A stretch of DNA of 64,000 nt from Candidatus Saccharimonadota bacterium (GTDB lineage: Bacteria; Patescibacteriota; Saccharimonadia; Saccharimonadales; OFTM59). Numbering within the stretch: the first letter of the stretch is position 1; each line of letters starts with the position of its first letter. This document shows, one piece after another, positions 9,991 through 64,000 of the stretch. The translations under genes were made by a program, and so were the position numbers. The notes under the pieces were generated by a model that saw nothing but the letters and a program-made list of their open reading frames with translations, was not told the DNA's origin and did not search any database. Location: assembly GCA_029260855.1 (NCBI GenBank), contig JAJDCK010000014.1, positions 6,018 through 70,017 of the forward strand, written 5' to 3'.

Positions 9991-10495
9991 AGATACGCTT
10001 ATTGATGCAACAAGACAACGACAAGCTAAAAGGAACGGTTGAAGTAGATGAGACATTTATCGGTGGTAAGGCAAAAATGCACAACAAATATAAGAACAAA
10101 ACGGGCGTTTATGGCGTTACTGAAAGAGGCGGTCAAGCCAAGGCTCTAGTAGCTTACGGTGGAGTTAACGCCACTACCCGATTCCGTTCTTAAAAGCTAA
10201 CGTTAAGGAGGGTTCTAGGGTTATGAGTGACGAAAGTAAGATTTATAATCGGGTGAAGCGTGATTATACCCATGCTTTTGTGACTCATTCTAAGGAGCAA
10301 TACGTTAAAGGTGACATTCACACCAACTCAATTGAGGGGTTTTGGGGCAACATGAAAAATGCCATATCAGGCACTTATCATTGTGTTTCACCAAAGTATC
10401 TACAATCGTATGTAAACGAGTTTGTTTTTAGGTACAACTATAGAGCCGTGCCTATTTGCCCTTTGCTTTTGGAACGGGCTGTGAAGCTTTCTTGA
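9991..10495 (+). pseudogene. IS1595-family (ISXO2-like DDE) transposase remnant: N-terminally truncated and frameshifted
   Basis: LKGTVEVDETFIGGK ... GVTERGG in one frame. After a frameshift near 10170: PIPFLKANVKEGSRVMSDESKIYN ... HTNSIEGFWGNMK...YH.VSPKYLQ.YVNEF.FRYN. The REP cluster abuts the 5' break. Confidence 0.75.
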
Positions 10496-10515
10496 TTAGT
10501 CGTTTGAATAGTTTT

Positions 10516-11109
10516 TTACTCATCATTTCCTTCTATAGAATTTGCTTCTGTGTTAATTAGAATTTTTTGAAGGCCAACGTAAATGGTATTGATCTTCGTG
10601 AATAGTTCTTCTGTCTTGTCATTAATTATATCAATGTCTTTGCCCATTATCTCAAGACCCTTTGCGTCTGTGGTGGCAAAATTATGAAAGAGATTGTTAC
10701 GGCTCTTGGCGATGTCCGCTAGCAGATCCAACACACTATCTCTATCAGGAAAACTAAAGCTTTTGAGCATATCTATGATCGTATTCATTGTTGGTGGTCG
10801 TTTACCCCTGGTGTTTCTTAGATCAATAAAGACGATGCCTGCAAAATCTCTGTAAGTGGATTGGTAAACAAGGTGTCTTAGGTTTTCTAACAAGTTACCG
10901 GCAAGGTATTCGGCAAAACTAGAGTAAATCATTGCAGTCGCTAATCTGGTTTCAACCTCCTGCTTGTCACGAATAGACCTGGCATAGTTGATCAATTCAT
11001 TCTTAATCTCAAGATCATCATGTTCAAATGGTTTAAAGGTTTTCTTTGCCATATCTATATTGTATAGCAAACCACCCTGTCGTAACCAATCAGTCATTAT
11101 TCTTTCCAA
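10516..11109 (-). CDS. orphan protein with HEPN-type RNxxxH motif (possible start ATG 11097)
   Basis: 197 aa, visibly AT-rich. Motif AKSRNNLFHNF in a predicted helical context. No other recognisable domain. Confidence 0.55.
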   Translation of the reverse strand: MERIMTDWLRQGGLLYNIDMAKKTFKPFEHDDLEIKNELINYARSIRDKQEVETRLATAMIYSSFAEYLAGNLLENLRHLVYQSTYRDFAGIVFIDLRNTRGKRPPTMNTIIDMLKSFSFPDRDSVLDLLADIAKSRNNLFHNFATTDAKGLEIMGKDIDIINDKTEELFTKINTIYVGLQKILINTEANSIEGNDE

Positions 11110-61443: not shown

Positions 61444-61953
61444 CTATAAGGCAGCTTCAAGAGCAGCCCACTCGGCGGCGGAGTCATCTTCTGGAACGTT
61501 AACGCTTACTTGATCTCCCGGCTTAGCTTTGAAATACGTCACACTAGCCAACAATACCCTAAGCTTCTTTTTGTTGACCTCTACGTAATAATGGCCGTTT
61601 TCTTGAGTTAATACTCCTACAAGCTGCTTTCTGGGGATCGGCCCGATCTGCTTATACATGAAAGCGCCATCATCGGCTATAGTTAACTTCAATATGTCGC
61701 CTTGGACAAGTTTTGACTTACTGGCGTAGTTAGCTGGTACGGGGTAGGTCTTGCCGTCGGAGCCGACCATTGTTTGCCCGTCAAACACGCCCTCAACAAC
61801 TTTACCTAGCGGCTCGTCCGCCAATGCGCCGCTAATAATAGGGTCTTCTCCTACTAGACTAATCAGCAGCTCTTTCGCCGCCGCCAGTCCTGTTTCAGCT
61901 TCTTGTATTAGTGTCTTTAGACGTTTTATCTGTTTATCTGGTACTTCTGCCAT
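61444..61953 (-). CDS. hypothetical protein
   Basis: 169-aa ORF between rplL and dnaX. No recognised motif. Confidence 0.65.
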   Translation of the reverse strand: MAEVPDKQIKRLKTLIQEAETGLAAAKELLISLVGEDPIISGALADEPLGKVVEGVFDGQTMVGSDGKTYPVPANYASKSKLVQGDILKLTIADDGAFMYKQIGPIPRKQLVGVLTQENGHYYVEVNKKKLRVLLASVTYFKAKPGDQVSVNVPEDDSAAEWAALEAAL

Positions 61954-63083: not shown

Positions 63084-63302
63084 TGGTATCCCTTTGTAAG
63101 TTCATTTGTGGCAACTATCGACCTGTAGTTGACTCGTTAGTACCAAAAAAGCTTCTTGTTACCAAGAAGCTTTTTAAAGAGTGCTTAAAAACAAAATAAT
63201 AAGTTTTTTCGCACCTAGGCGACTTTATCAAGGTTTCCCCGTCGCTGTCTTTGGTAACTTTTAAAGTCTAACAGATTAAACATGCTCAGTCAACTGGTTG
63301 GA
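63084..63302 (-). promoter_or_regulatory. rplJ leader with an internal intrinsic terminator (attenuator-like)
   Basis: Minus-strand RNA AAAAAGCUUCUUG-GUAA-CAAGAAGCUUUUUU (63145-63175), about 60 nt before the rplJ ATG. Upstream GUUACCAA can pair with UUGGUAAC at the hairpin apex. Confidence 0.45.
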
Positions 63303-63530
63303 TCAAACGACGCCACAAGTCCAAAATTCATTAGGAACGTGTCGTTTGGCAGGATCCGCGACGAATGGCTCGGTGCCATCATAGGGGATAACTACTACGG
63401 TGGCTAAGAACAAACGTTGTACAGCTTCCTGTGGCACTTCCTTGCCACCTGGTGTACGTGTGACACGCGGGCTACGCTCTTCAGTATTAAAAGGCACCTC
63501 ACCTTGACTTGAGTCCGGGTTAACACTCAT
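63303..63530 (-). CDS. 75-aa hypothetical protein
   Basis: AAGGAGA SD 5 nt before the ATG. No recognised motif. Confidence 0.55.
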   Translation of the reverse strand: MSVNPDSSQGEVPFNTEERSPRVTRTPGGKEVPQEAVQRLFLATVVVIPYDGTEPFVADPAKRHVPNEFWTCGVV

Positions 63531-63540
63531 TTCATTCTCC

Positions 63541-63645
63541 TTAAATTAAATTAATCAGGCTTTTGTTGAAGCCTGATTAATTTGGGGCTGTGCTGATCCT
63601 GCTCAATAAGCAGGATAGGCTTCAACCGTGTTGAAGCACAGCCCT
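63541..63645 (-). promoter_or_regulatory. riboswitch/attenuator-like leader: three-way junction followed by a terminator, with an alternative antiterminator pairing
   Basis: Minus-strand RNA elements: P1 GGGCUGUGC/GCACAGCCC, P2 UUCAAC-ACG-GUUGAA, P3 AUCCUGC-UUAUUGA-GCAGGAU, then a 12-bp terminator UUAAUCAGGCUU-CAACAA-AAGCCUGAUUAA followed by UUUAAUUU. GUUGAAGCCU (P2 3' arm) is perfectly complementary to AGGCUUCAAC in the terminator 5' arm/loop. Confidence 0.55.
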
Positions 63646-63883
63646 GTTAGGCCTAGGAGTCGCTGCAGGTTGTGCTTATGATTGAAATGCATATTACGAC
63701 CAGGTTACCATTGGTCCGCTGGCTTGACAAGGCCTCTACCAAGGCGTAGGTTAGTAATCGTGATTAGCAAAATCCAATCTAGAATCAGTAAATATTTCTT
63801 TCCGCCCATGATGATCAAGGTATTTATTAAGATTAAATAGGTTGGTGCGCCGTTTTTCATACAAAGTAAACAATAAATGGTAA

Positions 63884-63917
63884 ACCGGAATCCAACCAAG
63901 AGAGATCCGGTTTTTTT
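63884..63917 (+). terminator. intrinsic terminator on the plus strand
   Basis: ACCGGA-N16-TCCGGT followed by TTTTTTT. Sits 2 nt before the GGAG SD of the next ORF. Confidence 0.55.
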
Positions 63918-63928
63918 ACGGAGCGATT

Positions 63929-64000
63929 ATGAGTCTAGCATTAGAAGCGAAGCATGGCCCGCCTGAAAGTGAAACTCGCCTCGCAGCACGCCAGTTAGGT
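63929..64000 (+). CDS. 5' end of an unidentified CDS running off the right edge
   Basis: ACGGAG SD-like, ATG 63929, open to the window end (MSLALEAKHGPPESETRLAARQLG...). Confidence 0.4.
   Translation, partial: MSLALEAKHGPPESETRLAARQLG

Follow-up and report, generated by a model that had tools for sequence, protein, structure and literature searches.

Which signal controls the RNA leader that precedes a 75-amino-acid (aa) open reading frame (ORF) on the minus strand of the Saccharibacteria DNA analysed here (the window, 64,000 nucleotides (nt))? A sequence-only reading of this stretch had described a three-way junction followed by a terminator hairpin just upstream of that ORF, and had attributed the switch between them to a ligand or a protein. 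The trigger has to be reassigned, since a conserved leader ORF overlaps the 5' arm of helix P1, the hairpin P2 and the segment that can pair in two ways (segment 2), which points to the ribosome as the sensor. The element is very probably a leucine-type leader-peptide (ribosome-mediated) transcription attenuator in a Saccharibacteria genome, as judged from comparative sequence analysis. This is a known mechanism in a new setting, with a three-way junction as the protector, exchangeable codon runs, a Saccharibacteria host and, in the window, a non-biosynthetic target.

Conserved hairpins ahead of the 75-aa ORF

The leader elements between the junction and the start codon were located on the minus strand by reading the sequence, and all of those listed earlier are present to within 1 nt. 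P1 comprises 9 bp between a 5' arm, GGGCUGUGC (63644-63636), and a 3' arm, GCACAGCCC (63593-63585). It was found both by reading and in the minimum-free-energy (MFE) fold, and closes the three-way junction P1/P2/P3, which spans 63644-63585. Within the junction lie the P2 hairpin, UUCAAC-ACG-GUUGAA (63635-63621), whose 5' arm is designated segment 1, and the P3 hairpin, AUCCUGC-UUAUUGA-GCAGGAU (63616-63596). A predicted 12-bp terminator stem, UUAAUCAGGCUU-CAACAA-AAGCCUGAUUAA, occupies 63580-63551 (5' arm 63580-63569, loop 63568-63563, 3' arm 63562-63551) and is directly followed by the U-rich tail UUUAAUUU (63550-63543). The Shine-Dalgarno (SD) sequence AAGGAGA (63542-63536) and the ATG of the 75-aa ORF at 63530 come next. 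Segment 2, GUUGAAGCCU (63626-63617), consists of the P2 3' arm and GCCU. It is exactly complementary to segment 3, AGGCUUCAAC (63574-63565), which lies within the 5' arm and loop of the terminator. The MFE fold contains the junction together with the hairpin at -56.5 kcal/mol, as compared with a mean of -31.1 kcal/mol for 200 dinucleotide shuffles (z = -6.4), and 0 of the 200 shuffles reached as low an energy. A simple terminator scan did not list the hairpin at 63580-63543, probably because the U-tract also pairs with an upstream A-tract, giving the 15-bp version of the stem present in the MFE fold.

The element recurs in related genomes. BLASTN combined with a single-sequence covariance model located it upstream of rplJ in nine related genomes and in two variants, so that 11 other loci among 80 Saccharibacteria rplJ loci carry it by covariance models. 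A second covariance model, built from the family alignment, identified 12 clear members among the window and the 80 rplJ loci, and gave no match to the Nanosynbacter and oral-taxon TM7 loci among them. At least 120 metagenome contigs match an exact sequence pattern consisting of the 5' arms of P1 and P2 and segment 2, whose invariance in this set is by construction. Across the 80 metagenome loci listed, the covariance model returned 78 matches. Contigs bearing ilv or leu genes are tentatively tied to Saccharibacteria by shared synteny (rplJ, ArgE/DapE deacylase).

An initial alignment of 10 sequences with MAFFT and RNAalifold misaligned P3 and returned only P1 and the terminator; it was replaced by the single-sequence covariance model and a model-based alignment. 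In 83 distinct sequences, 92.4% of the cells are paired, compared with 30-44% in slid controls. Double (compensatory) changes occur at 7/7 P3 pairs and 11/11 terminator pairs. P1, whose 3' arm lies outside the search pattern, is paired in 98.8%, with compensatory variants in L010, L011, L032 and the first copy in L096 (L numbers denote loci). The family tail consensus is likewise U-rich (TTTTTTTA.TTT), and a GGA/GGAG motif is kept at the 3' end of the family model alignment. The hairpin structure is therefore real and conserved beyond chance. The search of relatives thus bore out the motif and its covariation in P3 and in the terminator, and the attenuation logic read from the single sequence stands, with a 12-bp stem and U-rich tail at which termination is predicted.

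The alternative pairing is conserved as well. Nine core pairs between segments 2 and 3 can form in 90-100% of 81 sequences, as the earlier reading would have it: the partner of segment 2 is found either in the junction or in the 5' arm and loop of the terminator. Segment 3 lies outside the search pattern and is partly the terminator loop, the conservation of which is not needed for termination alone. In variants, the two segments change together, as GGUGAAGCCG/CGGCUUCACC in L010 and GAUGAAGCCGU/ACGGCUUCAUC in L017. Three variants, L010 (1547-1662), L011 (1038-1163) and L017 (1538-1661), are missing P3 and have other P1 sequences (e.g. GGUUGUAUUGUU/AACAAUACAACC), while a leader ORF with an I/V/L run is kept and segments 2 and 3 are changed jointly.

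The leader ORF and its regulatory codons

Translated as codons, the conserved 'CUCCUCGGCCU' and the P1 5' arm turned out to belong to a leader-peptide ORF at 63692-63603 on the minus strand, comprising 29 codons and a TGA (MHFNHKHNLQRLLGLTGLCFNTVEAYPAY; ATG 63692, TGA 63605-63603). The P1 5' arm encodes Gly-Leu-Cys, and the frame continues through both P2 arms and segment 2 to a stop codon inside the P3 loop. All 87 copies that contain the anchor have such an in-frame ORF, of 23-34 codons, with the consensus M..FN..VKQ-[L/I/V run]-G/S-L-x-G-L-C-F-x-M-V-E-A and a stop directly after GCC or a few codons on. The 16 codons upstream of P1 lie outside the metagenome search pattern. Here the leader frame contains 1 stop codon, as compared with 145 and 50 in the other two frames, and 80 of 81 distinct sequences are stop-free in the leader frame, as opposed to 3 and 43 in the others.

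The regulatory codons of the window leader lie at 63668-63648 on the minus strand and comprise Leu codons CTG (63668-66), CTC (63659-57), CTA (63656-54) and CTA (63650-48); a further Leu codon, CTG (63641-39), is located inside P1. Across the family, the aligned codon positions -6, -5, -4 and -2 specify Leu, Ile or Val, with U fixed at the second position of the codon. In the run codons -6 to -4, the entropy is 0.23-0.50 at this second position and up to 0.6-1.6 at the first and third. CTC, the rarest Leu codon in the long ORFs of the window (8%), makes up 54% of the run Leu codons.

The identity of the run follows the genes behind it, which were named by NCBIfam. Most copies precede tiny variable ORFs. 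Others precede genes for the acetolactate synthase large and small subunits, a Rid-family protein, biosynthetic threonine ammonia-lyase, 2-isopropylmalate synthase, leucyl-tRNA synthetase, short IlvA-like enzymes, an ArgE/DapE-family deacylase or a serine hydrolase. Specifically, Leu runs, LLL(L), precede leuA, leuA-like genes, leuS, the serine hydrolase gene, some ridA-ilvBN operons and small ORFs of the window type. Ile runs, III(I)..I, precede the short IlvA-like pyridoxal phosphate enzymes, while mixed V/I/L runs precede ilvB-ilvN-ridA-ilvA and the ArgE/DapE-family deacylase gene. The frame-specific lack of stops, the fixed U at the second codon position and the tracking of genes by run identity are independent lines of evidence and demonstrate coding constraint on the leader ORF. 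Coding and alternative pairing, and not a ligand pocket, account for the conserved sequence of P1, P2 and the junction.

Locus L096 carries a tandem pair of attenuators with a spacing of about 420 nt, a Leu-type one (MSFKLRSILSLLLLSLMGLRF...) at 10031-10150 and then an Ile/Val-type one (..AVIIVLGIRGLCF..) at 10452-10573; a separate small ORF stands behind each. An upstream CUCCU that pairs with the SD in the MFE fold was considered as a device for SD sequestration and rejected, because CUCCUC represents two Leu codons, in the place of which Ile-type leaders have AUUAUU.

The leader ORF is preceded by a sigma-70-like promoter. A -35 box, TTGTCA (63730-63725, minus strand), was recognised by sequence reading and from the family pattern, and an extended -10 box, TGGTAACCT (63710-63702, minus strand), ends 9 nt before the leader ATG. 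Most family members combine TTGACA or TTGTCA with a 16-18 nt spacer (17 nt in the consensus) and a TAnnnT box, and the distance from the -10 box to the leader ATG peaks at 7-10 nt. No SD sequence was found ahead of the leader ATG across the family. With the transcription start site (TSS) placed by promoter spacing, the leader mRNA is probably leaderless or nearly so.

Proposed switching between terminator and antiterminator

Co-transcriptional folding was simulated for 77 sequences on RNA that stops at segment 3 and does not yet contain segment 4. While the P1 5' arm was left free, 19% formed the antiterminator; once 3 nt or more of it were masked, 97-100% did so, and with a mask reaching +27, the end of the leader ORF, 0%. 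Masking of the P1 5' arm thus yields the antiterminator and covering of segment 2 abolishes it, the pattern expected from classical attenuation logic. In the classical model, a ribosome that stalls favours the antiterminator at the expense of an intrinsic terminator, and the leader contains runs of regulatory codons, some of them rare.

The computed structures, covariation, conserved ORF, link between codon class and gene class, promoter consensus and masked folding outcomes can be assembled into the following mechanism. Transcription would start at or a few nt from AUG 63692, and the ribosome would translate the 29-codon leader, passing over the Leu codons (63668-63648) and then the 5' arm of P1, both P2 arms and segment 2. 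When charged tRNA-Leu is plentiful, the ribosome would reach the stop codon and cover segment 2; segment 3 would then pair with segment 4, the terminator would form and RNA polymerase would stop at about 63550-63543. A ribosome stalled at a Leu codon just upstream of or inside P1 would occlude the P1 5' arm and prevent the junction from closing. Segment 2 would consequently pair with newly made segment 3, and the resulting antiterminator of 10-11 bp would permit read-through into the 75-aa ORF. Without translation, the junction would be expected to lock segment 2 away and termination to follow as well, an outcome that is uncertain for the reason given below. An additional segment, segment 0 (AAGCACA, 63677-63671, minus strand), is complementary to UGUGCUU (63640-63634) in the P1 and P2 5' arms. 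Its mean duplex energy in the family is -14.0 kcal/mol, versus -8.7 kcal/mol for shuffled sequences, and its covariation is modest (24 of 39 pairs complementary versus 16.8 expected). Segment 0 is tentatively considered a candidate pause helix or early alternative helix with these arms.

Several observations weigh against a leucine-type attenuator or against parts of this scheme. The window leader has 5 Leu among 29 codons (L9, L12, L13, L15 and L18), only two of them adjacent, which is not significant when taken alone (P = 0.2); the window copy by itself is weak, and the leucine-type case rests on the family. The metagenome portion of that family is biased by its search pattern. Furthermore, the gene controlled in the window is not a leucine-pathway gene. 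Leaderless initiation was deduced solely from promoter spacing. Between the end of the main codon run and P1 there are 12 nt, so that a ribosome stalled on the run would reach only the first P1 nucleotides; the geometry is better matched by stalling at codon -2 or at the P1-internal CUG. In equilibrium folding with 5' masks, the terminator state remains the MFE structure at nearly every mask position; since the terminator wins at equilibrium, the switch must be kinetic. Finally, when nothing is masked, 74% of the partial transcripts adopt the antiterminator, as leader sequence further upstream is a competitor for the P1 5' arm; this makes the predicted outcome without translation uncertain.

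A rival reading is a metabolite riboswitch, in which the junction would bind a branched-chain amino acid (BCAA), a keto acid or an alarmone, thereby stabilising P1 and favouring the terminator. A compact conserved junction joined to a terminator/antiterminator expression platform is what such an element would look like, some copies precede leuA, ilvB, ilvA or leuS, and ppGpp riboswitches are known ahead of BCAA genes. However, every conserved junction nucleotide belongs either to a leader ORF codon or to an alternative helix, and the only freely covarying helix, the non-coding P3, is dispensable in L010, L011 and L017. A single aptamer can explain neither the switching of Leu, Ile and mixed runs in step with the downstream genes nor the frame-specific lack of stops. 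The Rfam results agree with the earlier statement that no known riboswitch class fits: at the gathering thresholds of Rfam 15 the attenuator motif had no match, and at E <= 10 in 63250-64000 it again had none, the only matches being chance-level ones to snoRNA, symR and freshwater-2. A riboswitch is thus highly improbable. A well-folded, covarying junction before an orphan gene can resemble one until all reading frames are checked, which is a caution for annotation. Attenuation by a trans-acting factor, as with TRAP, PyrR or a T-box, would follow the same regulatory logic, since the alternative pairings are identical; the factor would bind the junction or the antiterminator. A leuS and ilv-leu regulon is typical of the T-box leaders (RF00230), which share the terminator/antiterminator read-out. 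They sense uncharged tRNA, which is held by Stem I together with the bulge of the antiterminator. In contrast, no Stem I was found in the element described here, and its antiterminator is, on inspection, a continuous helix of 10-11 bp without a bulge for a tRNA 3' end. Neither a T-box nor any other leader family was matched in Rfam, there is no conserved single-stranded repeat for a protein, and the leader-ORF evidence would be left unexplained. We regard this as the least probable of the readings considered, with hardly any weight. A search with ARAGORN detected no tRNA or tmRNA at the motif.

A different possibility is that the transcript constitutes a stand-alone small gene, encoding a hydrophobic micro-protein (..LLGLxGLCFxxVEA) or acting as a small RNA, with the hairpin as its terminator and read-through as incidental. 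The unit indeed has its own promoter and terminator, the C-terminal GLCF..VEA is conserved, in L011 through synonymous changes, and the leader peptide peTrpL is reported to function in trans. Against this, the SD and ATG of the next gene follow about 5-20 nt after the terminator tail in nearly all copies, and the loop of the terminator is kept complementary to segment 2. Where the peptide varies, its amino acid class shifts with the downstream genes; its constant part coincides exactly with the RNA helices. A stand-alone gene is accordingly very unlikely. A further alternative, named in the sequence-only reading, that the hairpin terminates an upstream transcript, is excluded, as the upstream gene is divergent (ATG 63929, plus strand).

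Ribosome-mediated attenuation by the leader peptide, the reading we favour, invites comparison with known systems. Enterobacterial attenuators of leu, ilvGMEDA and ilvBN (Leu_leader RF00512 and relatives) likewise have a short leader ORF in which regulatory codons, some of them rare, occur in runs. Their leader ORFs are SD-dependent, whereas no SD is present here, and the helix architecture differs; Leu_leader and other amino-acid operon leader families were absent from the Rfam matches at E <= 10. The mycobacterial polycysteine upstream ORFs are reportedly leaderless short-ORF attenuators whose codons sense amino acid supply. The Saccharibacteria element shows an intrinsic terminator and a conserved antiterminator. 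The ilvB1 leader of Mycobacterium tuberculosis is also a leaderless short ORF that forms the first cistron, with codons sensing amino acid supply (PMC13236596). In the ilvBNC attenuator of Corynebacterium glutamicum, which has been studied by experiment, the TSS lies 1 nt from the start codon of a BCAA-rich leader peptide, and three hairpins serve as anti-antiterminator, antiterminator and terminator (PMC11857589). The present element resembles it (IlvL, MTIIRLVVVTARRLP) in the BCAA-codon leader, in the putative TSS at the start codon and in the three competing hairpins before the first gene (PMC11857589). No sequence or structural resemblance was seen, however. The protector here is a three-way junction closed by a 9-bp P1 with a coding 5' arm and a non-coding 3' arm, and one constant switch module is combined with Leu, Ile or mixed runs before different operons. 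The host is a Saccharibacterium, and the target in the window is a small orphan ORF.

The element is absent from Rfam, and no paper that connects Saccharibacteria or Patescibacteria with attenuation by leader peptides came up in full-text literature searches. Knowledge of gene regulation in the Patescibacteria, or candidate phyla radiation (CPR), is scant. The family offers a sequence-level handle on the sensing of charged tRNA-Leu and tRNA-Ile supply in ultrasmall bacteria, and its covariance model can be used to annotate leader ORFs and terminators that are unannotated in CPR genomes.

Controlled genes and neighbouring elements

The ORF controlled in the window (63530-63303, minus strand) has 2 Leu among its 75 residues. 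The description of this gene as an orphan nearly holds, as only the ORF itself was matched in a search of 5.8 billion sequences; it has to be relaxed for one distant relative of 78 aa among 1.84 billion representatives. Pfam gave no match for the 75-aa ORF or the leader peptide. The small ORFs behind other copies measure 43-158 aa, each behind an SD. They were considered as one protein family, which was rejected because nearly all of the 59 are singletons in an all-versus-all phmmer comparison; the window ORF clusters with three others.

The composition of these small ORFs depends on the leader. Those behind Leu-type leaders contain 4.3% Leu and 5.2% Ile, and those behind Ile/Val/Leu-type leaders 6.5% Leu and 2.3% Ile, as compared with 8.4% Leu and 5.8% Ile in large ORFs. 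Each group is therefore poor in the amino acid sensed by its own leader (Fisher P = 4e-9; first ORF behind the attenuators in loci L081-L160 and L001-L032). This depletion suggests that they are real proteins made during starvation for the sensed amino acid. The family thereby points out a group of hypervariable small proteins whose expression probably rises under amino acid starvation. Reduced-genome Saccharibacteria are commonly reported to be without amino acid biosynthesis. A speculative and rather unlikely scenario is that an ancestral BCAA-operon attenuator was kept after loss of the biosynthetic genes as a dedicated leucine-starvation sensor, and now switches on fast-evolving small proteins poor in the sensed residue, for nutrient acquisition from, or interaction with, the host bacterium.

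Low Lys and high Pro contents are further features of the small ORFs. Visual inspection shows a C-terminal motif in a subset of them, P-Y/F-D/S-G-T/S-E and then ..F/W R x N L P A, which closes the sequence or lies close to its end. This subset comprises the window ORF (63303-63530, minus strand), L001 (2544-2780) and ORFs in L002, L018, L095, L121, L135, L152 and L157, all behind Leu-type leaders, and only four of them cluster by phmmer. Among the larger products, an ArgE/DapE-family (M20) deacylase of about 385 aa is encoded behind Ile/Val/Leu-type leaders just upstream of rplJ in many Saccharibacteria, and a Ser_hydrolase (PF06821) protein of about 181 aa directly follows Leu-type leaders in five loci. 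The loci listed for the deacylase and hydrolase are L006, L008, L032, L081, L092, L097, L111, L114, L122, L126, L137 and L140, in each case between the attenuator and rplJ.

Downstream on the minus strand, the 75-aa ORF is followed by an L10 leader, rplJ and rplL. The relatives of L10 place the window in Saccharibacteria (TM7), with a best match of 84% identity. The L10_leader (RF00557) at 63136-63272 on the minus strand scored 55.4 bits against a gathering score of 44. It is a separate neighbouring element between the 75-aa ORF and rplJ. A promoter-like TTGACT-17-TAGACT (TG) at 63293-63265 on the minus strand precedes it; with this site and the L10 leader, rplJL probably has its own promoter and its own attenuator. 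Between rplL and dnaX, a 169-aa ORF (61444-61953, minus strand) is without a Pfam family, and an ORF of the same length occupies the same position in many related loci.

The divergent gene upstream has a leader of its own at 63725-63935 on the plus strand, with TTGACA (63725-63730), a TAGGTT -10 box and the mini-ORF MMIKVFIKIK. Its TTGACA forms a near-palindrome with the minus-strand -35 box TTGTCA. A hairpin with a U7 tail (about 63881-63918) stops about 5 nt short of the SD, and all of these elements are kept in L001. This leader may be a second attenuator. Pfam gave no match for the L001 homologue of the divergent gene. A 64-aa I/L-rich ORF (63705-63899, minus strand), conserved with the L001 ORF at 2195-2371, overlaps both divergent promoters and ends in a -10 box. 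It is probably not a gene; the two leaders may account for its conservation.

Other Saccharibacteria have a second type of leader close to rplJ, in L004 (680-795, minus strand), L020 (2508-2647, minus strand), L021 and L043 (2097-2207, minus strand). It combines a mini-ORF containing an I/L/V run (MNLLQFVQHRSQAFILGLILVVPANG, ..YPIIAKHIM.., ..SIIIAKAF..) with a terminator of the type AACCGrrCUCC-ACCA-GGAGCyCGGUUUUU.

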